DNA of 64,000 bases from Solirubrobacterales bacterium (GCA_047605325.1 JASGFX010000011.1:534-64533), one strand, 5' to 3'; counted from the stretch's first letter, positions 9,676 through 51,585 are shown. Notes: a model not told the origin generated them from the letters alone. Numbers and translations: made by a program.

Positions 9676-9677
9676 GG

Positions 9678-12068
9678 TCAGGTCAGGGTGCCGAACGCGA
9701 GGTCCGGAATCGCCGGGAAGTCGGTGACGATCTGACCGGTTCCGGAGTCCTTGGCGCCGGTTCCACCCGACGGGATCGTCGACGAGCCGTCGACCGTGGC
9801 GCCGCCGTGGACGATCAGCATGCGGCCCGGAAGCTTGACCACGAGCGCCAGCTTGTAGCGGGTGCTGGCGAGCGAGCCCGGCGTCTCGAGGTAGAGCTTG
9901 CCGGTGTAGGTGCCGGAGATCAATGGCGTGGTCAGCGAGACCGTTCCCTGCTGCGCCGCGGCCGGGCAGTTGTCGGTCGTCGTCGTGATCGCGTCGATCA
10001 CGGCCGTGTCGCAGGTCATGTTCGAGCCGGCGTTTCCGACGGCCGGGTTGATCGACATGCCGACCGGGAAGGTCAGCTTGACGTCGCCGATCGACGGGTT
10101 GCCGTCAGGCGAGGTGACGCCGACGGTCATGCCGGTCGGGGTCTGGGCCGAAGTGCTGATACCACTGATCGCGAAGGTCGGGGTACCGGCGCTGAATGCG
10201 GTCGGGCAACCGGTGGCGACGTAAGCGGAGGAGTTGTTCGCGGCGCTGGTGTCGTTGGTCGAATCAGCGGACGTGAAGTCTGCGCTGATCGTCGCACCGG
10301 CGTTGCACTTGCTCGGGTTGTTCAGGTAGTTCTTCGAGTTGACGGTGCCGTTGATCACCATCTGCATCGTGCGGATGTAGACAGCGATGCCCTCATAACG
10401 CGTCGGCAGCGTTGCCGCGAGGTCGATGCCGTAGTCGCTGCGCAGTGACGCCGAGATCGGAAGCGTCAGGTTTCCGAGGTTGAACGGACCTACCTGGACC
10501 GGGATGACAGCCTGGAAACGAGCTGGCTCCTCGGCGTTCGGCACGACGGCGAAGATCTTCCCGCCGGCGAGCGACACGTTCTCGTTGCCCGAGCCGATCG
10601 CCGTGGTGAAGGTTCCGACCTGCGAAGTCGGCTGAGTGGTCGCGCAGCTCGCCGCAGCGGCCGACGCCTGGGTGCACTGGGGTACGTAGCCGGTGCTGGT
10701 GTTGGCGGTGAGGCCGGTCGGGAAGTGGATCGCGAGGTTCTTGAGCTGACGCTCCTTGTCGTTGCGCGCGATGTTCATCGTCAGCGTCGGGTGGGCGCCC
10801 GCCACGTAGGTGCTGGCGGTCGCCGTGAACGACGGGTCGAAGGCGTTGGTCGAGCCGGTCGGCGTGTAAGTCGCCGAAGCGGTCGTGTCCGTCCCCGGGT
10901 TGCTGTCGGAGTTCGGCGTGAAGATCGCGTCGAAGGTCGCGGCGTCGTTGGTGCGCGGGTTCACGACCATTGCGCGGTCACCGCTGTTGAAGGCCATCGT
11001 CAGACCGGTGAAACCGAGGTCCGGGATGTTGTTGAAGTCAGCGACCATGCGGTGCGAGTCGAGCGTGTGCGCGCTGTCGATCGTTCCGGTCGCGCCAGTT
11101 GAGGCAGTCGGGATGTCACTCGAACCCGGGATCGTCAGCGAGCCGGCGACGACCAGCGGCTGGCTCGGGACGTTGACGATCATCACGACCTTGTAACGCG
11201 TGGCCGCGGTGTTGCCCGGCGCGACCACGTAGACGTTGCCGGCGATCGGGCTGGTCGAGAGCAGCGGGGTCGTCAGCGAGACGGTCGCGATCGAGGTCGC
11301 ACCCGAGCAGCCCGCGACGGTGGCGGCGCTGCAGGTGGCGCCGGCGGAGCTCAGCAGGTTGCCGAAGGCCGGGTTGATGTCCATGTTCAGCGGGAACTTC
11401 AGCTGGACGCGCTTGATCGTCGGGTTCGACTGGGTCGCGGCGTCGGAGCCGATCGCGAAGGTCAGTCCGACCGGCGCGGCGGCCTGCAGCGTGCTCGGAG
11501 TCACCGACATCGTCGGCTCCTTGCCCGAGGTGAAGTTCTTCGGGCAGCTGCTGATCGCGAAGGACGGCGAGGTGGCCGTGGTGAAGCTTGCGCTGTCGTC
11601 CTTGTAGACATCGGCGCTGAAGTCGCTGACGGTGCGGCAGATCGACGGGTTCTCGAAGAACTGGCTTCCGCTCACCGTGCCGTTCAGCGTGACGCTGAGG
11701 CTGCGGGTGCGGATGTCGATGCCCTCGTAGACCTTCGGCAGCGTCGCAGTCGCGTCGATGCCGTAGTTGCTGCGCAGCGAGGTCGTGACCGGGACCGACA
11801 GCTTTCCGAGGTTGTACGGACCGACGGTGACCGGTATCACGGCCTGCAGGCGTGCGGGCTCGGTGCTGTTCGGGACGACGTTGTAGACCGAACCGGCCGG
11901 GAGCGTAAGCGTCTCGGCGTCGGATCCGACTGTGGCCGTCGCAGTTCCGACGACCGGCGTGGCGCAGTTGCCGGCGGCAGCGACGGCCTGCGTGCACGTC
12001 GCGACGTTGCCGGTGTTGGCGACGAAGCCGACCGGCAGGTGGTAGACGACCTTGCGCAGGTAGTCGAC
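9678..12068 (-). CDS. Giant tandem-module secreted protein, middle segment (read in a different frame from its neighbours)
   Basis: ORF track 9678..11840 (720 aa) shows the same module architecture, e.g. LPTRYEGIAVYIRTMQMVINGTVNSKNYLNNPSKC and TPLISGTYTGKLYLETPGSLASTRYK. I extended the frame upstream to 12068, where it reads DYLRKVVYHLPVGFVANTGNVA. It ends at a TGA created by the 5-bp duplication at 9676-9685. Confidence 0.75.
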   Translation of the reverse strand, partial: VDYLRKVVYHLPVGFVANTGNVATCTQAVAAAGNCATPVVGTATATVGSDAETLTLPAGSVYNVVPNSTEPARLQAVIPVTVGPYNLGKLSVPVTTSLRSNYGIDATATLPKVYEGIDIRTRSLSVTLNGTVSGSQFFENPSICRTVSDFSADVYKDDSASFTTATSPSFAISSCPKNFTSGKEPTMSVTPSTLQAAAPVGLTFAIGSDAATQSNPTIKRVQLKFPLNMDINPAFGNLLSSAGATCSAATVAGCSGATSIATVSLTTPLLSTSPIAGNVYVVAPGNTAATRYKVVMIVNVPSQPLVVAGSLTIPGSSDIPTASTGATGTIDSAHTLDSHRMVADFNNIPDLGFTGLTMAFNSGDRAMVVNPRTNDAATFDAIFTPNSDSNPGTDTTASATYTPTGSTNAFDPSFTATASTYVAGAHPTLTMNIARNDKERQLKNLAIHFPTGLTANTSTGYVPQCTQASAAAASCATTQPTSQVGTFTTAIGSGNENVSLAGGKIFAVVPNAEEPARFQAVIPVQVGPFNLGNLTLPISASLRSDYGIDLAATLPTRYEGIAVYIRTMQMVINGTVNSKNYLNNPSKCNAGATISADFTSADSTNDTSAANNSSAYVATGCPTAFSAGTPTFAISGISTSAQTPTGMTVGVTSPDGNPSIGDVKLTFPVGMSINPAVGNAGSNMTCDTAVIDAITTTTDNCPAAAQQGTVSLTTPLISGTYTGKLYLETPGSLASTRYKLALVVKLPGRMLIVHGGATVDGSSTIPSGGTGAKDSGTGQIVTDFPAIPDLAFGTLT

Positions 12069-12069
12069 G

Positions 12070-15000
12070 GCGCCCGTTCGTGACGGTCATCGTCAGGTTC
12101 GGGTTGGCCGCCGGGGCGCCGCTGGTCACGCTGGCGCTGAAGCTCGGGGCGAAGCTGACCGTGCGGCAGTTCGTGTTCGTGTTGAACGAACTCGAGCTGG
12201 TCGCGGTGGTCGTCGGGTTCGTGTACGCGTACATCGTCGCCGTGATCGTGTTCGTCGCCGCGCAGGTCGTCGGCGTGATCAGCAGCGCCTTGCTGCCGGA
12301 GTTGAGCACGACGCTCAGCGCCGTCCAGGCGATGTCGGGCATGTTGTCGAAGTCGACCGTCAGCGCACCGGTGCCGCCGTCGACCTTGCCGGTTGCGCCG
12401 GAGGGCACGTTGCTGTCACCGTCGAGGCGCACGACACCGCGGGCCACAACGGTCTGACCCGGGATGTTGATCAGCACCGCGACACGGAAGCGCGTGGCCG
12501 CGTTGCCCGAGGGGTCCGGAGTCTCGAGGTAGACCTTGCCGGTGAACGGTCCGCCGGAGATCAGCGGAGTGGTCAGCGAGACGGTGCCGAACTGCGTGGC
12601 GCCGGCAGTGGAGCAGAGATCGCTGCTCGGGGTGGAGTTGTTGATGTTCGCCGTCGAGCAGGTGGCGGCGCTGCCGAGGTTGCCGACCGCCGGGTTGACT
12701 GTGGTGCCCGCCGGGAAGGTGAGCTTGAGCTCCTTCATCGTCGAGTTGCCGGCCGCGTTGGTCACCGCCGTGGTCAGGCCGATCGGAGCCTGGTTCTGCG
12801 GCGCTGCCGGGCTCGTCGTCATCGTGGCCGTCGGCGCGGTGGCTCCGAAGGTCGTACCGGTGCATGTGCCGGTCGTGAAGCTGGCGCTGCCGTTCGCGGT
12901 GGTGCCGAGCGCCGACGTCATCGTGACGTTGGTCGTCTTGGCCGTGTTGCACTGACTCGGGTTGGTCAGGAAGTTCGCGCTGTTGCCGGGGGCGACTCCG
13001 TTGATCGTCACCTTGAGCTGGCGGTACCGGACCTTGACACCCTCGTAACGACCCGGCAGCGTGACCGAGGCGTTGAGGCCGTACGGGTCAGCATCAGAGG
13101 CGCCGCGCATCGAGACGTCGACCGGGAGGGTCATCGAACCGAGGTTGTACGGGCCGAGCACGACCGGGACGATCGCGGTCAGCTTGGCCGGGGCGGTCGC
13201 CGGGGCGACGGTGTTGTAGAGCTTGCCGGTGAGAGTCGCGAGACCGACCGTCGGGGTCGCGATCAGCGCTGAGCCGACCGATGCGGTGACGGTTCCGACC
13301 TGGGTGTTGGCCGGGCAGTTGGCCGCGTCAGCCAACGCCTGCGTGCAGGTCGGGACGTTTGCGGGAGCGCCGGTCAGGCCGGATGGCAGCTTGAAGGTCG
13401 CGCCGGCGAGCTGCTGGTTGACCTCCGGACGGTCGACCTGGAGCGTGAGATCGGGGTGCGCGTTCGGGGTCGTGGTCGAGACGGTCTGGCTGAACGTCGG
13501 CGCCCAAGCGCCGCCGCCGTTGGCGGTGGTCGTGTAGCTGGAGGTGGCCGACGCCGTGTTCGGCGTCGCGGAGGTGTTCGTCGCGGTGAACGCCGCGTTG
13601 AACTGCTGCGAGGCGCCAGAGATCTCGGAGTTCACGAACATGCGCGGACTCTGGTTGAAGTTGAGCGACATCGACGAGTAGGCGACGTCGGGCAGTCCGG
13701 TGAAGGTCGCGACGATCTGGCCGGTCGAGACCTCAGAAGTCGAGCCGAGTCCGCCAGTCACGCCGCCTGCGGTCGAACCGGAGACGGTCGCTCCGCCGCG
13801 CACGATCACGAGACCGCCCGGCATGTTCAGGTACATCACGAACTTGTAGCGATCGGCCGTGCCCGAGCCGGGCTGCTCGAGATAGACCGAGCCCGTGACC
13901 GCGGTCGGCAGCAGCGGTGTGTTCACGGTCACATCGGCAACCTTCGAAGCGACCGCCGCACATGTGTTGGTCGTGTTGTTGAGGTCGTTGGTGACGTTGG
14001 CCGTCGGGCAGGCGGTGGCGCCGTTGGCGAAGCCGGGGTTGATCTCGAGACCGGCTGGCATCGTCACGGTGACGGCGTTGATCGTCGACTGTTGGACCGT
14101 CGTGCCGGTGACACCCGACTCGGTCTGAGCCTGGTTGACCGTCACGTTCAGCCCGGTCGGCTGGGCGGCCACCGTGGTTTCCGGAGTGACCGTCACGGTC
14201 GGCGAGAAGCCCTGGGCAGCGCATCCGCTCGTCGTCTGGTCAGTGTCGGACGGCGTCATCGTCGAAACGGTGCCGCTGCCGGGCGTGTTGCCCGAGAGAT
14301 CACCGTTCGAGGTGATCGAACTGTTGAAGTTGAGGACCTGATTGCACTTGGACGGGTTGATCAGGAAGGGCTTGCCGTTGACGTAACCGTTGAGTCGCAG
14401 GTTGATCGACTTGTAGGCGATCGGCACGCCGAGAATCGACTGCTGGAGTCCCAGTGTCGAAGCGCGCAGGCGGAAGGTCGACGCCGAAGGAAGCGTCATG
14501 TGCGTGATGTTCACGACGTTGCCGAGGTTGAACGGACCGACCACGGCCGGCGTGATGATCGCCAAGCGCGCAGTGTCGCCGGAATCTGGCTCGGCCATGT
14601 AGACCGTTCCGCCCAGCGTCGCGGGGCTCGAACCGGTCCCGGCCACGACCGTGACCGTTCCGACCGCGGCGGCGGCCGGGCAGCCGTTGGCCTGAATCGT
14701 CGCGAGGTTGCCGGTACAGCGATTTGCCGCGTCGATCACCTTGACGGAGCCGGCCATGCCGGTCGGAAGGTCGACCACGAAGTCGCGGATGTTGTCCTGG
14801 CGGTCGCCACGGGTGACCGTGAGGTCGAGTCGCGGGGACTTGCCGACGCCGGTCTCCGGCGTCGTGGCGGTCGCGTCGGACATGCTCGTGAGATTCGCGG
14901 AGAAACCAGGGTTGAAAGCGCTGAACGCGCAGGTCGCGTCGCCGGATTCGCTGATGGTGCGGCGCTGGCCGTTGGCGACAGACGCCGTCGGGCTGAGCGC

Positions 15001-16581
15001 ACCCTGTCCGGTCGTGGTCCACGGAGTCAGCGTGATGCCGAAGTCCGCGGTCGTGGTGCAGACGTTCGGGTTGAGCAGCAGCTGCTGCGCGGCGTTCGGA
15101 CTCGATACCGGGCCCGATGAAGGCGTGCCGACACCGGTCGATGCGGAGTTGAAGTCGAGGATGAACGATCGATAGTTGAACTGCGGCAGGCCGGCGCCGG
15201 CGTTGTCGAAGCTCACGACGACATTTCCGGTCGTCGAGTTGACGGTCGCGGTTCCCTGGAACTTCGTCGCAGTCGCGCCACGCGCGGCATAAACGTAGAG
15301 GCGGTACTTGCCGGCCGCTTCGTCACCAGTCTGAGGCTGCCCGAGATAGAGCTTTCCGACAAGGTTGTCGGTGAACTCAGGTGCATCGACCGCGACCGTT
15401 CCGATCTCGCTACTGCTCGGACAAGTCGGCGCGTTGCCGCTCGTTGTCATACCGGCCACCGGCATCAAGAACTGAGCCTCGGTGCAGCCGGTTGAGCCGA
15501 GGCGCGTCGCCACGCCCGGGTTGATCTTGTAGCCCGACGGCAGAGTCATCGCGAAGACCTTCGCGTAAGCGCCCTGCGCGACGTTGGTTGTCGGGACGGT
15601 GTTCGTCAGCGTTGCACGGATTCCGACCGGGGCTCCGGCCTCGTCGGTCGTCGTCGACATCGAGAACCCGAGGTTCAGCGCGGGGTAGCTCGCGCAGTTG
15701 GGTGTGCTGGTACCAGTCCCCGCACGCGAATCCAGCGTGCCGTCAACCGGGTGGACGTCGGCGGTCGGGCTGGCGTTGGAGTCGTAGCCCATCGTGTACG
15801 CCGTCGTGTTCCAAGCATCACAGCGCGTCGGGTTGGTCAGGAACGGCTTGCCGCTGGGCGCGATGCCGTTGATCGTCTGGCTGATCGTCTTGACACGGAT
15901 GCTCGCGGTGCCGCCCAGCGCACCGGTGTACTGGGTGCGCGGAAGCGTGTCCAGAATCTCGAGGCGCAGACCGTTGTCCCAAGGTCGCAGCGTGATCTTC
16001 GCCGTCATGTCCATCGACTGCGTACCGGCCAGTGAACATGCGCCGAGGGCGCCTCCGCTCGGCGTACCGCTGACGTGGACGCCGACGTAGGTCGGCACTT
16101 CAGGCGTTGCGGTCGGCCGGTTCTTCAGCAGATAGAGGTTTCCGGTCAGGGTCAGGCCGCACTCGCCGACCCACGCCGATGCGGTCACGCCGACAGAAAT
16201 CGTTCCGATCACACTGCTGGCCGGGCAGGTGCTGTAGCCGTCGGTGTTCGATGCCGGCGAGCCCGCGGTGTAGTCGACGGTGTTGCAGCGGTTGGCCTCG
16301 GTGATCGCGTTCGGATCACCGATCAGTCCGGCAGGCCAGTCGAATGAGAGGCGCTGGATGTCGTCGCCGCTGTCTCCGTTGCCGTTTCCGTCGGCGTAGT
16401 TGAGCGACAGCGATTGCGTGACGTTGCCGTGGGCGCCGGGAGTGTTGGTCGAGTAGGTGGTCGACGTGGTCGGCCAGACGGTCGCGCCTGCGTTCTGCGT
16501 GAAGGCGACCGTAAAAAGGCATGCAGCGGCCAGGGCACTCAGCCAGAGAAGAGCAATTCGCGACGTCCGTGTCACGTTCAT
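12070..16581 (-). CDS. Giant tandem-module secreted protein, N-terminal segment with signal peptide
   Basis: ORF track 11116..16821. The plausible start is ATG 16581 (MNVTRTSRIALLWLSALAAACLFTVAFTQNAGA-TVW), with GGGGG 5 nt upstream. The sequence is protein-like down to ...NPNLTMTVTNGR at about 12070. Beyond that the same frame becomes Arg/Pro/Gln-rich nonsense (RRRLPAQGRLPPAGRLRRQHRQ) until its nominal stop at 11116. Confidence 0.85.
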
Positions 16582-16946
16582 ACGAACCCCCGCGCTTGCG
16601 GAAAGATTCGGTGCTCCTTCAATACAGCTGGCAGCCGGGCCGTCGTGACCCTTGGCACTTGCGTGCATTCTCTGCATCCCCTTGATTTGATTCATGTCCC
16701 CGGTTTCGAAAGCGAATCCGTTCGTCCGAAAATCTGCACCGGACGGTGAAGTACTTGTTTGTGTCGGCGCGAGGCCTCTAACCCTTGAGTAACAACAGGT
16801 TCTTGTCAGCGCGCGGACCACGCACCCTTGCGTCGTCCGGGCAGCTCAGGCGACCCCCCTCCCTGGTGGCCGTATGGTTGAGCCGCGCGATCAGCGCGAA
16901 TCAAGAGTAGCCGTGAGCAGGTCAGCCCACAATGCTGATTTTTCAG

Positions 16947-18023
16947 CTAATTGAAAAGTCCTTCAATCACGCTGGTGAGCGCGGAAACCGAGGGTCTTCC
17001 CTCATCCAGGACGGTGCGCCGGCCGGGCCGCGTGGCCGGTGACCAGGCCACGATTTCGGCCAAACGGGCCGGAGCGATGCCAAATCCGCCCAATGCGGAC
17101 TTCATCCCGACTTCATCCAGGATGGTCTTGACGGCATCGATGTCGCCGCCCTGGAGGGCGGTTGCGACAAGCGTTCCGAAGGCGACCTGCTCGCCATGGG
17201 GGGCCGTTCCAGGCTCCAGCGCGTCCAGCGCGTGGCTGATCAGGTGCTCCGACCCCGAGCAGGGCCGTGACGATCCGGCGATCTCCATCGCGAGGCCGCT
17301 GAGCACGAGTCCGTCGAGCAGTCTTTGCGCCAGATCGAGCGGCAGCTCGCCTGAGCCGAGCGGCGTGAGATCGAGCCCTTCGATCAACAGATGCGCGCAG
17401 GAGCTGAGCAGCGCCGCGAAGTCGTCGACCTGCTCTTCGCCCGATTGCGCGGCGATCCGCCAGTCGATCAGCGCCGTGCGGTTTCCCAACAGGTCGCCGA
17501 CTCCGGCGCGCGCGAAGGCGATCGGCGCAGCCGCGATCGTCGTGAGGTCGGCGAGCACCGCGACGGGCAGCGCCGAGCGTTCGCTCACGACCTCGCCGGT
17601 GGTTTCGCGGATCACGGAGATCGGCGAGGCGATGCCGTCGGCCGAGAGCTGCGTCGGGATCACGATCACCGGTAGCTCGGAGGCAAGCGCCGCGGACTTG
17701 GCGACGTCGATCGGGCGACCGCCGCCGATCGCGATCAATACGTCACGGGCCCGGGCGATCTCGGCGATGCGCGCGACTTCGGCGCGCGAGTTGTCGGTCA
17801 CGACCTCACGCGACGCCGATTCGACCTTCAGGTCGCTGCAGACTGCGGCAGATTGCGAACTGCCCGAGACCAGCAGCGGCGCCGTGGCGCCGAGCGCTTC
17901 GAGCACGCCTGCGAGCTCGGCGGAGAGCTCATCGACGCCCTGCGTCGCGCGCAGGAACTGAGGTAGCTCGATCTGACGCTTCGCGGCGATCGCCCCGATC
18001 AGCTGATCGAAGCCGTCAGACAC
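16947..18023 (-). CDS. sn-glycerol-1-phosphate dehydrogenase family protein (AraM/EgsA-like, iron-ADH/DHQS-like fold)
   Basis: In-frame part of ORF 16947..18269. Motifs: IAIGGGRPIDVAK, IVIPTQLSADGIASP, RAGVGDLLGNRTALIDW, GSSRPCSGSEHLISHALD, PHGEQVAFG. The GTG start at 18023 overlaps the upstream stop by 8 nt (GTGTCTGA). The upstream part of the ORF is Ser/Arg/Thr-rich and looks non-coding. Confidence 0.75.
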   Translation of the reverse strand: MSDGFDQLIGAIAAKRQIELPQFLRATQGVDELSAELAGVLEALGATAPLLVSGSSQSAAVCSDLKVESASREVVTDNSRAEVARIAEIARARDVLIAIGGGRPIDVAKSAALASELPVIVIPTQLSADGIASPISVIRETTGEVVSERSALPVAVLADLTTIAAAPIAFARAGVGDLLGNRTALIDWRIAAQSGEEQVDDFAALLSSCAHLLIEGLDLTPLGSGELPLDLAQRLLDGLVLSGLAMEIAGSSRPCSGSEHLISHALDALEPGTAPHGEQVAFGTLVATALQGGDIDAVKTILDEVGMKSALGGFGIAPARLAEIVAWSPATRPGRRTVLDEGRPSVSALTSVIEGLFN

Positions 18024-18741
18024 GACTCTCGCGCTCCGCGATCGCGGGAGCGATCGTGTTGTCGGCGCGGTCGAGATCGTCGTGATCGTCGATCTCAACC
18101 CACTTCGTGCCGCCGACGCGTTCGATTCGCACGCGGCGCTCTTTCGCGAGTGCTTCGATCGCGTCTTCGTAGTAGACCTGCGTGTTGCCGCCGGAGACGA
18201 ATTCCTCGAGGATCTCGGCAAGGCGCGGGCCGTCAGCCGGATCGATACGGGTGAGGCCGATGTACTCACCGACGGCCCGGTCGAGCGCTATCGACTTGTG
18301 CAGACGGTCGAGGCCGTCGCCGGCCTCGGTCGCCTTCATCGACTCCTCGTCGACTGCGAGCTCGTCGTCGACGAGGATCGCGGTGCCTTCGGTTTGCGCG
18401 AGGCGGCGCGCCAGTTCCGGCTCGAACAGCAGGTCGCAATTGACGATCGTGCAACCCCGTGCGACGACCTCGCGCGCCTGCCACAGCGAGGTGATGTTGT
18501 TCTCGGTGTCCCAGCGCTCGTTGAAGATCGTTTCGACGTCGTAGCCATCAAACGCGTCGGCGGCGTGGCCCGTGATCGCGATGATCCGCTCGAACCCGGC
18601 GGCGCGCAGGTACTCGAGACTGCGATCGACCAGCGGACGTCCACCGGCCTCGACCATCGCCTTGGGTCTGTCGCCGGTCAAATCGCCCAGCCGAGAACCG
18701 CGGCCGGCGGCGAGGTAGATGACAGGAAGCTGATCGCTCAC
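18016..18741 (-). CDS. Nucleotidyltransferase (GxGxRL-type sugar-/alcohol-phosphate nucleotidylyltransferase, LicC/RmlA-like)
   Basis: In-frame part of ORF 18016..18921. Begins VSDQLPVIYLAAGRGSRLGDLTGDRPKAMVEAGGRPL from GTG 18741. The upstream portion of the ORF lies over the palindrome region and looks non-coding. Confidence 0.8.
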   Translation of the reverse strand: MSDQLPVIYLAAGRGSRLGDLTGDRPKAMVEAGGRPLVDRSLEYLRAAGFERIIAITGHAADAFDGYDVETIFNERWDTENNITSLWQAREVVARGCTIVNCDLLFEPELARRLAQTEGTAILVDDELAVDEESMKATEAGDGLDRLHKSIALDRAVGEYIGLTRIDPADGPRLAEILEEFVSGGNTQVYYEDAIEALAKERRVRIERVGGTKWVEIDDHDDLDRADNTIAPAIAERESRV

Positions 18742-18774
18742 GCAACAACCGTACCCGCCACCCCTCCACAGGCT

Positions 18775-18795
18775 TTGCAAGCTTCGAGCTTGCAG
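18775..18795. promoter_or_regulatory. Palindrome copy 1: TTGCAAGC-TTCGA-GCTTGCAG
   Basis: Read directly. It has 8-5-8 inverted-repeat geometry with a 7/8 arm match and lies 34 bp upstream of the nucleotidyltransferase GTG. Confidence 0.5.
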
Positions 18796-18837
18796 GCCGA
18801 AGTTGGCGAGATTTGGCCCTTGTCCATGGGGTTTTCT

Positions 18838-18858
18838 TTGCAAGCCCGAAGCTTGCAA
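18838..18858. promoter_or_regulatory. Palindrome copy 2: TTGCAAGC-CCGAA-GCTTGCAA
   Basis: Perfect 8-bp arms, exactly 63 bp from copy 1. Confidence 0.5.
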
Positions 18859-18900
18859 GAAATTCCCGTTGTTCAAGGGGTTTCTCGCGGCGGGATTCCG

Positions 18901-18921
18901 TTGCAAGCTCGAAGCTTGCAA
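18901..18921. promoter_or_regulatory. Palindrome copy 3: TTGCAAGC-TCGAA-GCTTGCAA
   Basis: Perfect 8-bp arms, exactly 63 bp from copy 2. Its last base is the A of the candidate ATG 18921. Confidence 0.5.
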
Positions 18922-19865
18922 TGAAGGACGTGTTGGTTAGGGTGCGCGGGATGGAGAATGCGGTTACGCGTAAGAACCTTCCAGCGCTTCCCGAACTGAT
19001 CGCTATCTGCGGCGGTGAGGGGACGGCCGGTCGCGACGAGCCACGCGACTTTCGGAGGATCTACGCCCGCGGCGTGCGCAAGCTCTCGATCCGCATCACG
19101 CGCGTGCTGCTCCCGACCGGCATCAGCGCCAACCAGACCACCGTGTTCGGGATCCTCGTCGGCATCGCCGGTGGCCTGCTGCTCGCGATCAACAGCTATT
19201 GGGCGCAGATCCTCGCGATCATCCTGATGCAGCTGGCCTTCGTGCTTGATTTCTGCGACGGCGAGATCGCGCGCTTCGAGCGGCAGATCGAGGGCAAGAG
19301 TTCCGGCGCCGGCGGCGCCTACCTCGACTGGGTCGGGCACTACTACATGCCCGCCGCGATCACGGCGGGCCTCACCTGGGGCGTATTCCGCGAAAACGGC
19401 GACTGGTGGTGGCCGGCACTGGGCCTGATCGTGATCCTTTCACTGGTGCGCGTGCCCTACAGCGCGCGCGACCACATCATGTGGGGCGTCTACCGCGACA
19501 AGCCCGAGCTACGCGGGTCCGACACCATGGTGCGCGCAGCGCTTGCGCGGATGGGCGGCGACCCCGACGCGCTGAACCTGGAAGCCCAGGGCGCCGAGGC
19601 GATGGCCGGCTCCGAGGGCCGCGGATTGCTCTGGAGCCGGTACACCAACTTCGGCCAGTTGATCGTCTTCCCAGGCTTCATCAACCTAGTCGCGGCGGCG
19701 AGCATCATCGACATGCTGATCAGCGCGTTCTCCGCACCGAGCTACTTCGAGGTATCGAGCGTCTGGGCGCGCGGCGCGGTGCTGGCCCTACTCGGGGCCG
19801 TGCACTTCCTGCACCAGATCCGGGCGATCGCCCAGGGATTTCGAATCACGCGCGCGCTGCAATAG
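18921..19865 (+). CDS. CDP-alcohol phosphatidyltransferase family membrane protein (atypical motif)
   Basis: In-frame part of ORF 18813..19865. Motif LDFCDGEIARF (D-x2-DG-x2-AR) is followed by ...GAYLDWVGH, where the terminal Asp position is His. Several hydrophobic segments are present. The start could be ATG 18921 or ATG 18951 (MENAV). Confidence 0.75.
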   Translation: MKDVLVRVRGMENAVTRKNLPALPELIAICGGEGTAGRDEPRDFRRIYARGVRKLSIRITRVLLPTGISANQTTVFGILVGIAGGLLLAINSYWAQILAIILMQLAFVLDFCDGEIARFERQIEGKSSGAGGAYLDWVGHYYMPAAITAGLTWGVFRENGDWWWPALGLIVILSLVRVPYSARDHIMWGVYRDKPELRGSDTMVRAALARMGGDPDALNLEAQGAEAMAGSEGRGLLWSRYTNFGQLIVFPGFINLVAAASIIDMLISAFSAPSYFEVSSVWARGAVLALLGAVHFLHQIRAIAQGFRITRALQ

Positions 19866-21323
19866 CGAGCGCGCGTCGCGCAGCTGCCGAAGCTCCGCAC
19901 GGCTGAAGAAGCCGGTCAGCAACAGCAGCGCCGGATAGAGCAGGCACCAGAACGCGCGCTCGATGGCTGCGGTCGTGCCGATCGGACCCAGCAGCGCCTC
20001 TCCCGAATACGCGACCACGACCGCCACCGCCGCGATCTGCAGAATCCTGCGCCACTCGAGCACGAGCCCGAGCGTCTGGCGCGCGCGCATGTACATCAAG
20101 CCGTTGAGCACGAGGTACGCGCCGATCAACGCGATACCCGCGCCGACGATCCCGTGATCCGGTATCAGCAGCCAGCAGAGCGCGACGTTCGCCACAAGAC
20201 CCGCCGCCGCAACGGGAAAGAGCGAGCCGGTCTTTCCCATCCGGGCGACCGACGAGACCATCACGAGGTATGCGCCATAGAGCACGACACCCGTCGCGAC
20301 CAGCGGTAGCGCGCGGTGCGCGTCGTAGAACTGCGGATTCGAAGTGAGCACCCGCACCAGCGGTCCGGCGAGAAGCGAAAGCGCTGTCACGACGGCACCG
20401 GTCACGAGCAGGTAGTAGGTCAGCACCCGCCCGTACACGACGCTCGCCTCGGCGTCGGACTTGATCGAGTACGCAAGCGGCGGCCAGGCCATCTGGAAGG
20501 CACGCACGAAGATCGTCACGCCCTGCGCAAGCTTGTACGCGATCGAATACGTGCCGACCATCGTCGCGCCGACGAGGCGCGACGATGGCAGGTGAAGCAG
20601 AAACAGGCGGTCGACCCAGTTGAGCGCGTACAGCGAGATCTCACCCGGCACGGTCGGCAGGCCGAAACGCAGCATCGGCGAGAGGAGCGGCAACCCGGGG
20701 CGCGGGATCCGCCCACGACTGATGTGGAGAACGAACAGTGCCAGCACGACGATCGCGGTGCCCACCGCGTTTCCGAGCACGAGGCCTTCCGCACCCTGAT
20801 CGCGGCCGATCACCAGCCACAGCGTCAACGGCACAGTGACCAGCACATTCGCGCTGGTCGCGAGCGCGTAAGCGCCGGCCTTCTCCTCGACGCGGAAGAA
20901 CGCCAGCAGCAGTTCGTAGAAGGTCGAGAACCAGAACCAGATCACGCCGATCACGACGAGCTGGCGTGCATCCGGCGCATCGCGCAGCAACAGCGACTCG
21001 AGCAACGGGACAGCCGCGAGACACAACACCACGCCGAGCGTCGTGCTCGTCAACAACCCCCAGAATGCCGTCTGGGTCACCTTGCGCTGGTCGTATTCGT
21101 CTTTCAGGAAGTAGAAACGCAGGAAGGCCTCGATCGCGCCGAGCCGGAAGAAGATCGACAGCACGATCACCGTCGTCGCGATGATCTCGGCGTAGCCGAA
21201 GCCGCGTGGGCTGACGTATTTCGTATAGATCGGCAGCGTGAAGAGCGCGATCAGCTTCGCCAGTACGCTCGACGCGGTGTAGGCGGTGCCGGTCCTGGCC
21301 AGGCGCTTGAGATAACCGATCAT
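19788..21323 (-). CDS. Polysaccharide/oligosaccharide flippase (MOP superfamily, Wzx-type)
   Basis: 511-aa polytopic protein. The N-terminus MIGYLKRLARTGTAYTASSVLAKLIALFTLPIYTKYVSPRGFGYAEI is typical of 'polysaccharide biosynthesis protein' flippases. ATGA overlap with the upstream gene at 21320-21323. Confidence 0.8.
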   Translation of the reverse strand: MIGYLKRLARTGTAYTASSVLAKLIALFTLPIYTKYVSPRGFGYAEIIATTVIVLSIFFRLGAIEAFLRFYFLKDEYDQRKVTQTAFWGLLTSTTLGVVLCLAAVPLLESLLLRDAPDARQLVVIGVIWFWFSTFYELLLAFFRVEEKAGAYALATSANVLVTVPLTLWLVIGRDQGAEGLVLGNAVGTAIVVLALFVLHISRGRIPRPGLPLLSPMLRFGLPTVPGEISLYALNWVDRLFLLHLPSSRLVGATMVGTYSIAYKLAQGVTIFVRAFQMAWPPLAYSIKSDAEASVVYGRVLTYYLLVTGAVVTALSLLAGPLVRVLTSNPQFYDAHRALPLVATGVVLYGAYLVMVSSVARMGKTGSLFPVAAAGLVANVALCWLLIPDHGIVGAGIALIGAYLVLNGLMYMRARQTLGLVLEWRRILQIAAVAVVVAYSGEALLGPIGTTAAIERAFWCLLYPALLLLTGFFSRAELRQLRDARSLLQRARDSKSLGDRPDLVQEVHGPE

Positions 21324-22846
21324 GCGGGATCAGTATCGCGGCGCGGGATGGCGGCAAGCGAGACCGCGCAGCCGAGCAGCACCCAGGTCAGCGGATCCTC
21401 GAGGAACGCCGCGTAGGCCAGGGTGTGAACGAAGATCGCCGTGAAGCAGGCCGCGACGGCGACGCGCGCCACCAGGCCCGGTCGACCGCGTGAGCCGTCC
21501 TCCCGCCCCACGCGCCGGAAGACCGCGCCGAATCCGGCGATCAGCAGGGCGACAAACGCAGCGAGTCCGACGATGCCCTGCTCGGCTGCGACCGTGAGCG
21601 GCGCGGTGTGCGACTTGGTCGTGACAGCCGGGCCGTAGGTCGTGCGCTTGGCGAGATCATTGGCCCGGTAGGCGCTGGAGAAGTCACCGGAGCCCTGGCC
21701 GAAGATCGGCTTGTCGCCCCACAGCGTCAGCGCGCCGGTGACGAGATCGAAGCGCCCACTGGTGGTCGTCTCGGCGCTCTTGCTGCTGGTGAGATTGACG
21801 CCGGTGACCGACGGGAAGGCCAGGGCGAAGATCAGCCCGGCCAGCAGCACGCCTCCGGTCACGAGCAGAACCGGCTTGGCCTTCCAGCGCAGCGCCGCCA
21901 GCACCACGAGTCCGGCCAGCAGCGCGGCGAAGCTCGACTGGCTGAGACTGAGCACCAGGCCGGCCCAGAGCAGCGCGAGGACCCCGGCCGCCCCGAGCAC
22001 CCGGCGGGTCTTCTGCGTGTAGAGCATCACCGCCGTGACGACGAGCATCACCATCGCGAGGAAACGCCCGTAGATGTTCGGATCGAAGAAGAACGACTGC
22101 ACGCGGAAGTACGGATCGAAGTCGGAGGGCTGCGCGCCGCCGATCGTGATCAGGTAGCGCCCGCGCGCGAACTCGATGAAGCCGCCGAGCACGAGGATCC
22201 CAGCCACGCTGACCAGCGTGATCGCGCAGGTGCGCAGCAGCTTGGCGTCCCACTTCTGCGCGGCGGCGATGCCGTAGAGCAGCGCAAACGGCGCGTAGAA
22301 GAAGCAGAAGTTCTGCGTTGCGACAGAAACATCGTTGGCGTAGAGACTCTGCAGCGCGTAGAGCGCGAGGTAGATCACGATCGTGACGTCGAGCAGTTTC
22401 GGGCCGCGCGGAGCGTCTTCGATGCGACCGCGCCAGACTGCCCACCCGCGCGCGATCACAGCCCCAGCGATCGTCAGATAGAGCGGCAGCAGCAGCTTGA
22501 CCGAATCGCCGCCTATCTCGAGTGGCACACGGAACGCAAGCGTGGCGAGCGCGGCCGGAATCACCGCGCGCGGCCAGCGCATGAAGAACGCCGCGACGCC
22601 GGCGAGCACGATCAGGCCGGTCACCGCGCCTGCCCCGATCAGCGGCAGCGAGAGCGAGGGGAGGCTGGAGGTCTGGTCACCGATCACCGAGCCGGCGAGC
22701 ACGAGCGGGCTGAAGATCAGCACGGCCAACGCGGAGGCCCAGCGCAGGCGCTCACTCGAGGCGAGCAGCCAGCCACCGATCAGGCCGGCGAGCATGATCA
22801 GTCCGAGACTCTCGAGCACCGGCGCGGCTGCGAGCGGCATGGTCAC
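21320..22846 (-). CDS. O-antigen ligase/polymerase-like (Wzy_C family) polytopic membrane protein
   Basis: 508 aa with many TM segments. Contains LVLSLSQSSFAALLAGLVVLAAL and a periplasmic-loop-like region ending TKSHTAPLTVAAEQGIVGLAAF. GTGA overlap with the upstream gene. Confidence 0.7.
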   Translation of the reverse strand: MTMPLAAAPVLESLGLIMLAGLIGGWLLASSERLRWASALAVLIFSPLVLAGSVIGDQTSSLPSLSLPLIGAGAVTGLIVLAGVAAFFMRWPRAVIPAALATLAFRVPLEIGGDSVKLLLPLYLTIAGAVIARGWAVWRGRIEDAPRGPKLLDVTIVIYLALYALQSLYANDVSVATQNFCFFYAPFALLYGIAAAQKWDAKLLRTCAITLVSVAGILVLGGFIEFARGRYLITIGGAQPSDFDPYFRVQSFFFDPNIYGRFLAMVMLVVTAVMLYTQKTRRVLGAAGVLALLWAGLVLSLSQSSFAALLAGLVVLAALRWKAKPVLLVTGGVLLAGLIFALAFPSVTGVNLTSSKSAETTTSGRFDLVTGALTLWGDKPIFGQGSGDFSSAYRANDLAKRTTYGPAVTTKSHTAPLTVAAEQGIVGLAAFVALLIAGFGAVFRRVGREDGSRGRPGLVARVAVAACFTAIFVHTLAYAAFLEDPLTWVLLGCAVSLAAIPRRDTDPA

Positions 22847-24741
22847 TTCAGCACCTCGAGGATCGCGTTGGTCGACCAGGCCACGTTCGACTGCGCCGGA
22901 TCGCCGAGCTGCGCAAGCCAGCCACCGGCGCCGACACGGATCACCTCACCCTTGCCGAGCTTGTAGCCGACGAAGGCGGGAGCATCTGGCTCGCGCCCGC
23001 CGGAGGTCAGCACCTGAGCGCCGCTTGCAAGACCCTTCGACTGCTGGAAGAGCGTGAACAGGCCGGTCGGTCCGCGCAGCAGTCCGAGCTCGTCCTTGAA
23101 CTTCGCAACCGGCGCCGGCGCTTCGGTGACGTTCGCAGTCGACTCGCCGAAGATGTCGCGGCCGCGCTGCTCGGACGGACCGGCAAGCTCGGTGGCCGAA
23201 AGCGTGACCGTGCGACGGAACGCGCTGAGCGAGAAGAACGCAACCTTGCCCCCGCCCTCGACGAAGCGGCGCAGTTGCGTGCCGAGCGCGGCCGGCAACC
23301 AGCGCTCATCCCCGGCCAGCAGCACGGCGTCGTGGCCGCGCAGCGCTGCGGCAGGGTTGGCAGCGAGCGCGATATCGGTCGTGTACTGAGCCTTGAGCGT
23401 CGGCTGCGCGGTCTCGAGGTATTGCGCCAAGGCGCCCTCGGCCTCGCCAAAACCGGTGGTGCCGGCGGCGCGCGCGAGCAGACGGTTGAGCGGAACGCGC
23501 AGCGTCTCGCCGGCCGGCAGCGACTGGTAGGGATCGGGGAAGCCGTCGCCCGACATGTCGACGGGGTTGGTCGCCTGCCAGGCGATCGCCGGCTGCACGA
23601 TCAGCAGGCGACTGCGGTGGCCCGAGGCGATCGGCAGTGGCGCGCGCGCGACGCCGGAGTCACCGGCCACGCGCCGCTTGGCCTGGATGCGCAGCACGTA
23701 GAGGCCACTCGACGTGTCCGGAACGGTCAGGTGGAGTGTCCCGCCGCGCGCCGTGCCCGACGCCACCGACGATCCCGAGACGCTCGCGATCCGCCAGCGG
23801 TAGCCGCCGCTCGGCGGAGCGACGCGGAAGCTCGCTCGCGTGCCGACAACTGCAGCCCGGGTGGGCGGCGCGATCTGCACACCGGTCAGCGTCACGCCCG
23901 AGAGCCCGCGGGTGCTCCCCGAACGCGGCGGATCGGCATCGCTGCTGCTCCCGACATTGCCGGCCGCGTCACAGGCGCGAGCGACGATCACGTAACTGCC
24001 GGTTGGCGCCGGGCGGGCTCGGCCACTGTGCCTGGTGCCGTAGCAATGCGGCGACTCGGCTGTGTTGTCCCAACCCGAGAAGGCGCCGACGGTCTGATCC
24101 CACGCGCCGCTGCTCGAGCGGCGTGTACTGAGGAACGAGGCCACCGGGTCAGACGACGTGCGCTGACCACGCACGCGATATACGAGGAACTCTGCCCGCA
24201 ACGACGTGCCGGCCCCGGAGAAATTGACCTTCACCGGCGAGCGTCCGCGCAGAATCGAAACAGTGTGGCTGCCGACGACGTTCGCGGTGATCTTCGGCGC
24301 TTCGGTGTCGACGACAAAGAACTGATCCGGCACAAAAGTTCGACCGTTGCCCCGCAGGGTGATGCGCACGCGGTAGGCGCCGTCGGGCACTGGCTGCCCG
24401 CGATGCTTGTGGCCGTTGTGGTCGACCGTCCCGCGGTAGCGACCGTTCCAGTAGTACGTGTGCGGGCCCGCCGAGAGCCGCTCCTCGTCGGCCAGCACCC
24501 GCACCGGTGAGCCTGTGCGGTCGATCACCGTCACCGTCACATAGTCTGACTTCTTGATCCGGAAGCGCACGCGGCCCTTCTCGCGCAAACCATCATCGTT
24601 GGGCGAGATGTAGCGCTTGAAGCTGACCGAATAGACCAGCGGATCGGTGTGCTTGAGCCGCTGCGCAGCGAAGAACGCAAAGAACGTCGCGAGCACCAAC
24701 AGCCCGAAGACAACTCGCGAGATCTGCGTCGCCCGGGTCAC
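22843..24741 (-). CDS. Membrane-anchored hypothetical protein (Ig-like FlgD-type segment plus unknown C-terminal domain)
   Basis: 632 aa with a GTG start. N-terminal TM (ISRVVFGLLVLATFFAFFAA). Contains YVTVTVIDRTGSPVRVLADEERLSAGPHTYYWNGRY. The C-terminal half has AWQATNP and LLAGDERW...FVEGGGKVAFF, which weakly recall dimethylformamidase-beta-like / GATase1-like domains. Good GC3 bias. Confidence 0.6.
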   Translation of the reverse strand: MTRATQISRVVFGLLVLATFFAFFAAQRLKHTDPLVYSVSFKRYISPNDDGLREKGRVRFRIKKSDYVTVTVIDRTGSPVRVLADEERLSAGPHTYYWNGRYRGTVDHNGHKHRGQPVPDGAYRVRITLRGNGRTFVPDQFFVVDTEAPKITANVVGSHTVSILRGRSPVKVNFSGAGTSLRAEFLVYRVRGQRTSSDPVASFLSTRRSSSGAWDQTVGAFSGWDNTAESPHCYGTRHSGRARPAPTGSYVIVARACDAAGNVGSSSDADPPRSGSTRGLSGVTLTGVQIAPPTRAAVVGTRASFRVAPPSGGYRWRIASVSGSSVASGTARGGTLHLTVPDTSSGLYVLRIQAKRRVAGDSGVARAPLPIASGHRSRLLIVQPAIAWQATNPVDMSGDGFPDPYQSLPAGETLRVPLNRLLARAAGTTGFGEAEGALAQYLETAQPTLKAQYTTDIALAANPAAALRGHDAVLLAGDERWLPAALGTQLRRFVEGGGKVAFFSLSAFRRTVTLSATELAGPSEQRGRDIFGESTANVTEAPAPVAKFKDELGLLRGPTGLFTLFQQSKGLASGAQVLTSGGREPDAPAFVGYKLGKGEVIRVGAGGWLAQLGDPAQSNVAWSTNAILEVLK

Positions 24742-24768: not shown

Positions 24769-25974
24769 CTATTGCTGCTGGAAGTCGGCGCCGAGCACAA
24801 CGATCACCGGTACCGATCCCCCCTGCGCGAGGATCTCTTCGGTCGCCGGTTTGAGCGTCTTGACCGCGAGTTCGGTCGCCACCTCCTGGGCTTCGGGTTT
24901 GCTGCCCGCGGCGTAGTAGACGACCGTCTCCGCCTGGTTGTTGGCGTCCGGGAGGTTGCCGGTGGTGGTGTCGGTGAAGCCGGCCTTGTTCAGACCGGTG
25001 GCTGCGCTCGCGGCGAGCCCGGCCGTGCTGGTTCCGTTGAGCACCGAGACCGTGACCGCGGCGCGGTTGATCCGCGTGTTGCGGTCGTTGGATGTGTTCG
25101 CCTGCTGGCGGTTGGCGGCGCTGCCGCCTGTGCCCTTGGTCGTCGTGGTGTCGTCGCCGCCGAGCAGTTGCGTGGCGATCAGGATCACCGCGAAGACCGC
25201 GACCAGAACACCAGCCACGGCGAACGGCACGCGGCTCTTGTGCTCAGGGGCCTGGTCGATCGCCTCAAATGTGCCGGATCCGGTCGTGCCGGTCGAGAGG
25301 TAGTAGTCGGGGATCGGCGGCGTCGAAGGCGCGCGTACGGCGGTGAACTCAGACGTGTCGAGCGGGGGCAGCGGCGGAAGCGGACCTGCCGAGCGCGCTG
25401 CCGCCGGGGTCGAAGGGCTGAGGCGGTTGGCCTCGGCTTCGCCCTCGGGCTCGGCGGCGGGCTCTTCGGTCTCTGCGGCTGGCTCGTCTTCGGAGTCCGG
25501 TGCGGGCTGGATCGCAGTCTCACCGACGGCCGCGGACTCGGCGACGACATGGTGTTCCTCAGGCGCCTGCTCGGCCGCTTCGCCGCCGAACTCTTCGCCG
25601 ATCACATCATGGGCCTGAGTGGCTCCCGGGTCGTGCTCGGGAACGGCCGGCGCTTCGGCTGGCGGCTCGCTCTCCGCGACGATCGCCGGCGACGGCGTGG
25701 TACCCGCGTCTTCGGCGATACCCGCCGCGGCCTGGGCCTCGGACTGGCGATAAGCCATCGACTCGTAGGCCTGGGCGATCGCTTGAGAAGCGATCTGCTG
25801 CGCGCGCAGCTCGACCTCGGCGGCGCGCTCGGGCTCGCGACCGGCCCACTCGCGCAGGCGCTTGACATCGCGCGCCTGGCTGAAGTAGAGCATCGCCAGC
25901 ACGGCAAGACCGATGATCCCGGCGAAGCCGGCAATCGCGCCGAAGTTAAGAAGTATGTCTTTGAGTTCGCCCAC
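24769..25974 (-). CDS. LytR_C (LytR cell-envelope-related C-terminal) domain membrane protein
   Basis: N-terminal TM, then an acidic Pro/Ala/Glu-rich linker. The C-terminus reads VTVSVLNGTSTAGLAASAATGLNKAGFTDTTTGNLPDANNQAETVVYYAAGSKPEAQEVA. Confidence 0.75.
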   Translation of the reverse strand: MGELKDILLNFGAIAGFAGIIGLAVLAMLYFSQARDVKRLREWAGREPERAAEVELRAQQIASQAIAQAYESMAYRQSEAQAAAGIAEDAGTTPSPAIVAESEPPAEAPAVPEHDPGATQAHDVIGEEFGGEAAEQAPEEHHVVAESAAVGETAIQPAPDSEDEPAAETEEPAAEPEGEAEANRLSPSTPAAARSAGPLPPLPPLDTSEFTAVRAPSTPPIPDYYLSTGTTGSGTFEAIDQAPEHKSRVPFAVAGVLVAVFAVILIATQLLGGDDTTTTKGTGGSAANRQQANTSNDRNTRINRAAVTVSVLNGTSTAGLAASAATGLNKAGFTDTTTGNLPDANNQAETVVYYAAGSKPEAQEVATELAVKTLKPATEEILAQGGSVPVIVVLGADFQQQ

Positions 25975-30124: not shown

Positions 30125-30137
30125 ACTCGCGCCCCAA

Positions 30138-37634: not shown

Positions 37635-38161
37635 CCGGTCGTGCCGCCGCCGTGCGAACGTCTCGCCGGAACGCGGATGCGGCCGTAGGCGCGCACAGTC
37701 CTGGCGTTGTAGGCGCCGGCCCGAGCCGGATTGGTGACGATCGACCCGCGACCATTGCTCACGCGGAACTGCGGCTTGTAGGTGCGCGTCGCGCCCGGGG
37801 CCAGCGAGCTGATCTGCCAGCAGAGGTTTCCGCTCTTGAGCTTGCCGTGATCCTTGTAGACCACACTCAGACGATCGGGGATAAGGTCGCAGACCTCGAC
37901 ATTCACGGCCCGCGTCTTCGAGACGTTCTTGACCTTGATCGTGAACGTGACCTTCCCTCCGACCTTGACCGACTTCTTGTTCGGGACCTTCGTGATGCGC
38001 AGCACGGCGGTGCTCTTCTTCGCTTCAACTGGCGAGGTCGCGGTGTTGTCGTTCGGATTGCGGTCGTTCTCTGCCGTCACCACCGCCACGTTGACCGTGC
38101 TGCCGGTACGGGCGATGATCGTCTTCAACTCGATCGTGCGCGACTCGCCGTTGGGGATGTC
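37631..38161 (-). CDS. C-terminal continuation of the DUF11 surface protein, downstream of an in-frame TGA
   Basis: Same frame as 38162..45520 (38164-38128 = 36 nt). It reads DIPNGESRTIELKTIIARTGSTVNVAVVTAENDRNPNDNTATSPVEAKKSTAVLRITKVPNKKSVKVGGKVTFTIKVKNVSKTRAVNVEVCDLIPDRL, i.e. further DUF11 repeat sequence. Confidence 0.7.
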   Translation of the reverse strand, partial: DIPNGESRTIELKTIIARTGSTVNVAVVTAENDRNPNDNTATSPVEAKKSTAVLRITKVPNKKSVKVGGKVTFTIKVKNVSKTRAVNVEVCDLIPDRLSVVYKDHGKLKSGNLCWQISSLAPGATRTYKPQFRVSNGRGSIVTNPARAGAYNARTVRAYGRIRVPARRSHGGGTTG

Positions 38162-51583: not shown

Positions 51584-51585
51584 GT

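Follow-up and report, generated by a model that had tools for sequence, protein, structure and literature searches.

What does a gene of the sn-glycerol-1-phosphate (G1P) dehydrogenase (G1PDH) family do in a bacterial wall-glycan cluster? Actinobacterial homologues of G1PDH have been known for two decades and appear in lipid-divide phylogenies without an assigned role, and bacterial homologues have repeatedly been taken to hint at the synthesis of archaeal-type lipids in bacteria (PMC1586193, PMC5059525, PMC6431249). The locus that raises the question lies in 64,000 nt of metagenome-assembled genome (MAG) DNA from a Solirubrobacterales bacterium (high GC, about 66%), the whole of which is referred to below as the window. 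Here, a G1PDH-family gene, (a), adjoins a nucleotidyltransferase gene, (b), and a gene for a membrane protein of the cytidine diphosphate (CDP)-alcohol phosphotransferase family, (c). We propose that this triad is on balance probably a supply-and-transfer module, in which dihydroxyacetone phosphate (DHAP) would be converted to G1P and then to CDP-glycerol, from which glycerophosphate would be passed to a lipid-linked envelope glycan.

Translation of the open reading frames (ORFs) recovered the three genes where an initial annotation of this DNA had placed them, together with all of the motifs quoted there. The proteins of the window were compared with known families and structures by Pfam, NCBIfam and PDB searches.

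Gene (a) and the G1P dehydrogenases

Gene (a) begins with a GTG codon (18023-18021), and its product carries the motifs GGGRPIDVAK (residues 100-109), PTQLSADG (123-130), AGVGDLLGNRTALIDW (173-188) and SGSEHLISHALD (256-267). An NCBI protein from a Solirubrobacterales MAG is 100% identical to it. In Pfam it matched Fe-ADH_2 (PF13685) at 74.3 bits, against a cutoff of 28. The NCBIfam G1PDH model NF002022 covered it over nearly the whole model length at 220.5 bits, which is under the equivalog cutoff of 413 bits for that model; the glycerol dehydrogenase (GldA) model NF006941 reached 80.4 bits, and no dehydroquinate (DHQ) synthase model in NCBIfam matched. The best solved matches were the G1PDHs of Pyrobaculum (5FB3, 144 bits) and Methanocaldococcus (4RGQ, 114 bits). 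PDB entries named glycerol dehydrogenase scored at most 76 bits, except for 3CE9 at 139 bits; 9H4X, which we take to be probably AraM, scored 78 bits, and no DHQ synthase entry was matched in the PDB search.

An alignment brought (a) together with its triad-linked homologues from Solirubrobacterales, Streptomyces, Kitasatospora and a Thermoleophilia MAG and with four solved proteins. No variation between them and 5FB3, 4RGQ and 9H4X was seen at the metal ligands D129, H260 and H276, nor at H264, G174xGD177, D187-W188 and S252-R-P-x-S-G. The SRPxSG loop (SRPxSGxEH) is conserved in the alignment, its Arg being absent from 3CE9 alone, and (a) keeps every residue that is invariant among the solved, named G1PDHs. 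A neighbour-joining tree was built with no outgroup and with no GldA or DHQ synthase sequences in it. Judged by its scores and residues, (a) groups with the G1P dehydrogenases, as the initial annotation had it, and not with glycerol dehydrogenase or DHQ synthase, both of which are ruled out as identities on the same grounds. The grouping that the initial annotation had named as its own refutation was thus looked for, and the annotation withstood the test. The predicted reaction is the reduction of DHAP by NAD(P)H to G1P, activity and stereochemistry alike being predictions. The accompanying remark that bacterial G1PDH homologues are uncommon was overstated, as a clan of them in Firmicutes and Actinobacteria is documented (PMC6431249, PMC5059525).

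Gene (b), a candidate G1P cytidylyltransferase

The product of gene (b) has an AAGRGSRL nucleotide loop at residues 11-18, as expected of the GxGxRL nucleotidyltransferase that had been annotated. Full-length PDB alignments were obtained with LicC and PntC only: residues 6-226 aligned with LicC (1JYK, 68 bits) and residues 8-238 with PntC (6PD1, 65 bits), whereas sugar-1-phosphate transferases matched over about residues 5-100 only, the N-terminal nucleoside triphosphate (NTP) loop. LicC is a cytidine triphosphate (CTP):phosphocholine cytidylyltransferase and PntC an aminoethylphosphonate cytidylyltransferase, both of them small. The end-to-end alignment with these two enzymes alone, and the confinement of the sugar-1-phosphate match to the loop, fit a small phospho-alcohol substrate activated with CTP, and we predict that (b) is a G1P cytidylyltransferase. 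A sugar-1-phosphate nucleotidyltransferase identity was rejected on the grounds of that loop-only match.

The TGA stop codon of (b) (18018-18016) overlaps the GTG start of (a) by 8 nt (GTGTCTGA), as claimed originally and now checked in the sequence. In three relatives, described below, the overlap is 8 nt (L002 and L083) or 4 nt (L084). From the 8 nt overlap, (b) is predicted to be translationally coupled to (a).

Gene (c), a CDP-alcohol phosphotransferase with His at the fourth Asp

Gene (c) is divergent from (b), and its true start may be at Met11 (18951, giving 304 aa) instead of 18921, because homologues of 295-310 aa begin at the equivalent of Met11. The Pfam family CDP-OH_P_transf (PF01066) was matched narrowly (24.2 bits; cutoff 22), and the match reached no further than the first half of the family motif. 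The nearest solved relative in the PDB search was AF2299 (4O6M, 61 bits). An AlphaFold 2 (AF2) model from 82 sequences had a predicted local distance difference test (pLDDT) score of 91.9 and a predicted template-modelling (pTM) score of 0.89. The top 19 Foldseek matches to this model were all CDP-alcohol phosphotransferases, with AF2299 first (probability 1.00) and PIPS and DIPPS among the top. Six helices are seen both in the hydropathy profile and in the model, helices 4 and 5 being separated by a hydrophilic insert of ~60 aa.

The family signature, D1xxD2GxxAR...GxxxD3xxxD4, comprises eight residues described as absolutely conserved (PMC4634129), of which (c) keeps seven. The first half is intact, as had been noted (DFCDGEIAR, 110-118), and is followed by G132-AYL-D136-WVG-H140, in which the fourth Asp (D4), due four residues after D3, is replaced by His140. 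The residues D110, D113, G114, A117, R118, G132 and D136 are invariant in three homologue alignments. The initial annotation had singled out this distal part as atypical and as following a long spacer. The His in place of the last Asp stands, but it is no peculiarity of this protein, and the spacer exceeds that of AF2299 only modestly (13 residues versus 9). His140 is kept in 120/120 close homologues and is invariant in alignments of homologues down to 23% identity, and His occupies the D4 position in 90 of ~135 cluster representatives (50% clustering). By these counts, His at D4 is the hallmark of a large subfamily, here called 'DxxxH'. Decay of the active site, as in a pseudoenzyme, was considered and ruled out, because His140 is both invariant and subfamily-wide.

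D4 is the probable catalytic base of the family, and its change from D to N abolishes the activity of a phosphatidylinositol-phosphate (PIP) synthase, MtPIPS (PMC4634129). In the model of (c), His140 sits where D4 sits, one turn past D136 on a continuous helix, and it can reasonably be inferred to act as the general base. Triad-linked Streptomyces homologues have Ala at D4 and an Asp one turn (four residues) later, and Kitasatospora homologues have His at D4 and a Glu one helical turn later; the base position is therefore plastic in the subfamily. The donor pocket of AF2299 holds the glycerol of CDP-glycerol (PMC4634129), and we predict that (c) is a CDP-glycerol:acceptor glycerophosphotransferase.

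The triad recurs in two gene orders

In a genome-neighbourhood survey, the triad recurred in close and in distant relatives. The close set consists of five further loci (L001, L002, L003, L083 and L084; 52-87% identity), which make six with the window, and the distant-context scan of species-representative genomes yielded 80 loci. The adjacency of the three genes is not a matter of chance, because they co-occur in the five Solirubrobacterales-type loci and, in a different order, in 36 more distant ones. As an indirect check on linkage, the match lists for (a) and (c) apparently have 24 contigs in common.

In all five close loci, the triad is followed by genes for a Wzx flippase, a Wzy_C protein, a DMFA2_C-like protein, a LytR_C protein and a PglF-like dehydratase. 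DUF354 and DegT genes come next in L002, L083 and L084, and a DegT-like gene is also found in L001 and L003. The L001 locus has additional genes for a GNAT protein, three glycosyltransferases, a Bac_transf initiating enzyme and BacA, the last in the same position as in the window.

The 36 distant loci (20 from Streptomyces, 15 from Kitasatospora and one from a Thermoleophilia MAG) have a tightly packed, collinear order of (b), (a) and (c), followed by a TagG/TagH-type ABC-2 permease/ATPase pair. A CDP-alcohol phosphotransferase fused to DUF5941, a domain on which our literature search found no papers, lies upstream in the Streptomyces loci. The Streptomyces and Kitasatospora block abuts hopanoid genes (squalene synthase-like, HpnE-like and squalene-hopene cyclase), as in Streptomyces sp. 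NBC_00212 (L058:6387-20303) and 34 similar loci.

In Micrococcales, homologues of (c) are found within canonical teichoic-acid operons that lack (a) and (b). In Knoellia, the homologue is flanked by TagG/TagH, a DUF5941 fusion, a GT2-Glyphos_transf protein and CWB2 wall-binding amidases, and in Glutamicibacter the order is TagG, TagH, GT2, (c) homologue, GT2, TagD and two Glyphos_transf genes. The Glutamicibacter TagD matched PF01467 at 90.6 bits, and PF04464 (TagB/F) is present in both Glutamicibacter and Knoellia; a Pfam scan found neither family in the cluster of the window. In a Woesearchaeota MAG (L049:3965-11533), the neighbours of a His-type (c) homologue are a 451-aa nucleotidyltransferase, a class I/II aminotransferase, methyltransferases and Wzx, which suggests an archaeal glycan cluster using a different activated alcohol, possibly aminated or a phosphonate. 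Viewed across these neighbourhoods, the (c) subfamily looks like a group of phospho-alcohol transferases of glycan clusters, with the donor set by the neighbouring supply genes.

A proposed route to a glycerophosphorylated envelope glycan

The family membership of the three proteins, the conservation of their residues, their linkage in two gene orders and the TagD/TagF partners in relatives can be combined in a single model. Gene product (a) would reduce DHAP to G1P, and (b) would join G1P and CTP to give CDP-glycerol, the enantiomer of the TagD product. At the cytoplasmic face of the membrane, (c) would then move glycerophosphate from CDP-glycerol to an acceptor hydroxyl, releasing cytidine monophosphate (CMP). 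The acceptor is most likely to be an undecaprenyl-pyrophosphate-linked oligosaccharide, made by the neighbouring PglF-like dehydratase and DegT aminotransferase together with glycosyltransferases encoded elsewhere. Wzx would flip the glycan, and the Wzy_C protein would polymerize or ligate it. This route, from DHAP through G1P and a CDP-activated alcohol to transfer, is the one put forward in the initial annotation, and it is the best-supported reading; of the destinations offered there, the gene context favours glycan decoration and speaks against a solute or a lipid head group.

Several points weigh against this model. Every step of the route is a prediction, from the activity and substrate of each enzyme to the stereochemistry of the product and the acceptor. 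The score of (a) falls short of the G1PDH equivalog cutoff, as given above. In (c), the Asp that serves as the catalytic base is missing, a D-to-N change at that position inactivates MtPIPS (PMC4634129), and catalysis by His is assumed. The cluster of the window has no initiating phosphoglycosyltransferase or glycosyltransferase of its own, such genes being present only in L001. The neighbours of the Woesearchaeota homologue differ from those of the triad, and the donor would therefore vary within the (c) subfamily, a conclusion that hinges on reading those neighbours correctly. Lastly, one point in favour of the model has to be qualified: (a) and (b) occur together in 37 of the 80 loci scanned, a TagD-like gene in 10 and both in 0 (naive p ~0.001), but this split is suggestive and not independent evidence, because it follows taxonomy, and Pfam confirmed the TagD identity in a single locus.

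Alternative explanations

The shortfall of (a), which stands at about half of the equivalog cutoff, would also suit a related polyol or polyol-phosphate reductase like pneumococcal Gtp1, in which case the alcohol would be glycerol-2-phosphate, sn-glycerol-3-phosphate (G3P) or another alditol phosphate. Gtp1 is said to have been identified by Wang et al. in 2010 as the dihydroxyacetone reductase of the pneumococcal CDP-2-glycerol pathway. The structure 3CE9, deposited as 'glycerol dehydrogenase', comes close to the best G1PDH (139 versus 144 bits), and gtp1-3, the genes of a glycerol-2-phosphate/CDP-2-glycerol pathway in capsule loci, set a precedent (PMC1391919). We nevertheless regard such a reductase as unlikely. 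All of the G1PDH-invariant residues are kept in (a), among them the SRP-loop Arg missing from 3CE9, and none of the conserved clusters has a kinase or phosphotransferase gene like Gtp3, a comparison made with the Gtp proteins by description only.

A Kennedy-type reaction is unlikely too, and we rank it next. Here, (c) would pass the CDP-glycerol supplied by (a) and (b) to diacylglycerol or another lipid alcohol, giving phosphatidylglycerol directly, with an sn-1 head group. Phospholipids are the product of most characterized CDP-alcohol phosphotransferases, the automatic label given to (c) homologues by the Joint Genome Institute (JGI) is 'phosphatidylglycerophosphate synthase', and a similar logic of nucleotidyltransferase and CDP-alcohol phosphotransferase has been proposed for the inositol lipids of Bacteroidetes (PMC9246714). 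However, (c) has six helices only, and a further 3-4 helices at the C terminus are typical of members that use lipid acceptors (PMC4634129). Genes for lipid synthesis are not linked to the triad, its conserved partners being Wzx, Wzy and LytR_C, or TagGH, TagF and TagD in relatives, and the window contains no prenyltransferase or phospholipid gene.

We consider it improbable that (c) acts earlier, placing glycerophosphate on undecaprenyl phosphate or a membrane glycolipid as the primer for a glycan or a poly(glycerophosphate). The lack of a phosphoglycosyltransferase in the cluster of the window would be explained by such priming, His at the base position could suit other acceptor chemistry, and a second, DUF5941-fused CDP-alcohol phosphotransferase accompanies the (c) homologue in Streptomyces and Micrococcales. 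Set against these points are the Bac_transf initiating enzyme within the L001 cluster and the acceptor itself: to our knowledge, no member of the family uses a phosphate acceptor.

Least credible of all is a solute made by the logic of IPCT/DIPPS, in which CDP-glycerol and a soluble glycerol or inositol phosphate would yield a diglycerol-phosphate-like phosphodiester: although the best NCBIfam matches of (b) and (c) include the two IPCT/DIPPS halves and a six-helix architecture fits soluble acceptors (PMC4634129), those matches reach 46 bits each, far under the cutoff of 580, no inositol-phosphate synthase (MIPS) or phosphatase gene is found among the neighbours in the window, the triad is consistently linked to glycan export and assembly genes, and the lineage is mesophilic and environmental.

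Other features of the window

Table 1. Positions in the window of the triad and the features around it, with the evidence for each
Feature	Position	Strand	Evidence
Giant Ser/Thr-rich secreted protein, at least 5,600 aa, running off the window	1-16845	-	Open-frame map
Gene (a), G1P-dehydrogenase family (Fe-ADH_2), 358 aa	16947-18023	-	Pfam, NCBIfam, solved G1PDHs
Gene (b), LicC/PntC-type nucleotidyltransferase, 241 aa	18016-18741	-	NTP_transf_3 65 bits; LicC and PntC alignments
Divergent intergenic region with three 19-bp palindromes, TGCAAGCTnnnAGCTTGCA	18742-18920	.	Pattern search
Gene (c), six-helix CDP-alcohol phosphotransferase, 'DxxxH' subfamily, 314 aa	18921-19865	+	Pfam, AF2299 match, AF2 model
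Wzx-type flippase (Polysacc_synt)	19788-21323	-	Pfam, 60 bits
Wzy_C/O-antigen-ligase-family membrane protein	21320-22846	-	Wzy_C 66 bits (Pfam); weak TfpM match (NCBIfam)
Conserved 632-aa protein	22843-24741	-	Weak DMFA2_C and FlgD-Ig matches
Membrane protein with C-terminal LytR_C domain	24769-25974	-	LytR_C 61 bits (Pfam)
PglF-like membrane-anchored UDP-N-acetylhexosamine (UDP-HexNAc) 4,6-dehydratase	26040-27965	-	Polysacc_synt_2 362 bits; PseB and FnlA matches
DUF354 protein	28012-29022	-	Conserved in L002, L083 and L084
DegT-family sugar aminotransferase	29027-30364	-	Conserved in L002, L083 and L084
BacA/UppP undecaprenyl-diphosphatase, two ORFs	30844-31167 and 31196-31660	+	Matches to N- and C-terminal parts of the family

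Genes (c) and wzx converge, and their 3′ ends share 78 bp (19788-19865); an identical overlap was called in L001 and L083. Polymerase, ligase and O-oligosaccharyltransferase are all conceivable roles for the Wzy_C protein; PDB searches with it and with the DMFA2_C-like protein gave no informative match. The split of BacA/UppP into two ORFs is probably due to a frameshift or a sequencing error.

Immediately downstream of (a), and transcribed in the same direction, the giant gene is spread over the frames 1-10104, 9681-12086 and 11119-16845, the two frame changes of which could be assembly errors or real. Giant homologues of 6,404-6,656 aa, with no Pfam match, lie directly downstream of (a) in L002, L083 and L084, and it is possible that the giant protein is a carrier or partner of the glycan.

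The intergenic region between (b) and (c) contains its palindrome at 18776-18794, 18839-18857 and 18902-18920, with an exact period of 63 bp, and these three matches compare with 0.11 expected by chance. No further copy was found elsewhere in the window with up to 3 mismatches, or in 82 related loci. Searches of the region for regulatory signals gave no sigma-70-like promoter and nothing useful from the promoter and terminator scan, no repeat with Tandem Repeats Finder and no Rfam family. An operator array and an inserted repeat are both possible readings of the palindromes. The gap between (b) and (c) is only 16-44 bp in L002 and L083, and in L084 (8583-11727) three small ORFs lie between the two genes, with an HTH_31 regulator and another small ORF after (c). 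The junction of the two genes looks like a hot spot for insertions.

An envelope theme runs through the rest of the window too. In the stretch 37631-46453 (minus strand), a YkuD L,D-transpeptidase and a DUF11 protein adjoin a second giant protein, which has 2,763 aa (38162-46453). The region 47391-59167 contains DsbA/VKOR, D-Ala-D-Ala ligase (Ddl), a second Ser/Thr kinase and the conserved actinobacterial block PknB(PASTA)-PbpA-RodA-PstP-FhaB-FhaA.

Significance and comparison with known systems

Across very distant Actinomycetota, a G1PDH gene is tied to a cytidylyltransferase and a membrane phosphotransferase in wall-glycan clusters, and this linkage points to the supply of glycerophosphate for envelope polymers as the job of the enzyme. 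We put forward more tentatively, as a proposal that could well fail, that Actinobacteria from Solirubrobacterales to Streptomyces possess a cytoplasmic route to mirror-image CDP-glycerol, from which a His-type or Ala/Asp-shifted transferase would place G1P on lipid-linked wall glycopolymers, unrelated to TagD/TagB/TagF. The result would be a teichoic-acid-type glycerophosphorylation built from three non-canonical enzyme families, probably with inverted stereochemistry. If true, the puzzling bacterial G1PDH homologues would serve cell-wall chemistry and not archaeal-type lipids. The route would add a third, unrelated type of enzyme for the glycerophosphorylation of glycans, beside the TagF-like and LicD-like enzymes. 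It would also show that the active site of CDP-alcohol phosphotransferases varies in nature, His or a shifted Asp standing in for a catalytic residue described as 'absolutely conserved', the Asp. The occurrence of the module in Streptomyces makes it directly accessible to genetics and wall chemistry.

In the literature that we searched, we found no report of a G1P cytidylyltransferase and no CDP-alcohol phosphotransferase reported in wall-polymer synthesis. The association of the three genes is already known, having been noted once, in Streptomyces: a 2026 synteny study reported the co-location of a CDP-alcohol phosphatidyltransferase, a sugar-phosphate nucleotidyltransferase, araM, tagG/tagH and crtB, and proposed no mechanism (PMC13118837). 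The gene families are the same three, and our 20 Streptomyces and 15 Kitasatospora loci confirm the block, with (b), (a), (c), the ABC-2 exporter and the hopanoid genes. The Streptomyces transferase differs from that of the window in its Ala at the fourth Asp and its Asp one turn later, and it is accompanied by the DUF5941-fused paralogue.

For each of the three enzymes there is a characterized counterpart that it resembles in part. Bacillus subtilis AraM, which with PcrB makes heptaprenylglyceryl phosphate, is likewise a bacterial G1PDH homologue that supplies G1P; however, (a) is nearer to the archaeal EgsA type (144 bits) than to 9H4X, probably AraM itself (78 bits), and its partner is a cytidylyltransferase rather than a prenyltransferase. 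The LicC/LicD phosphocholine and PntC aminoethylphosphonate systems share with the triad the activation of a small phospho-alcohol by CTP ahead of the decoration of a surface glycan, but the transferase of the window is a CDP-alcohol phosphotransferase and not of the LicD type, and its alcohol is predicted to be G1P. AF2299 of Archaeoglobus fulgidus (4O6M/4O6N/4Q7C) has the same six-helix core and is the nearest relative of (c) in sequence and in fold, but it retains the canonical fourth Asp and is fused to a cytosolic cytidylyltransferase-like domain, whereas (c) has His140, the ~60-aa hydrophilic insert and no fusion. The IPCT/DIPPS system for di-myo-inositol phosphate is likewise made up of a cytidylyltransferase and a CDP-alcohol phosphotransferase that work on a small polar alcohol phosphate, with weak homology in both halves; the genes of the window differ in being unfused, in having no supply gene for inositol phosphate and in their glycan-assembly context.

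The closest parallel in overall logic is the TagD/TagB/TagF pathway, in which an activated glycerophosphate is likewise delivered, on the cytoplasmic side of the membrane, to a wall glycopolymer carried on a lipid, and Micrococcales homologues of (c) lie inside TagG-TagH-TagD-TagF operons. The enzymes of the window are nevertheless not homologous to GpsA, TagD (PF01467) or TagB/F (PF04464), and export is of the Wzx/Wzy type instead of by an ABC transporter. TagD uses G3P, whereas the glycerol phosphate of the Solirubrobacterales triad is predicted to be sn-1.

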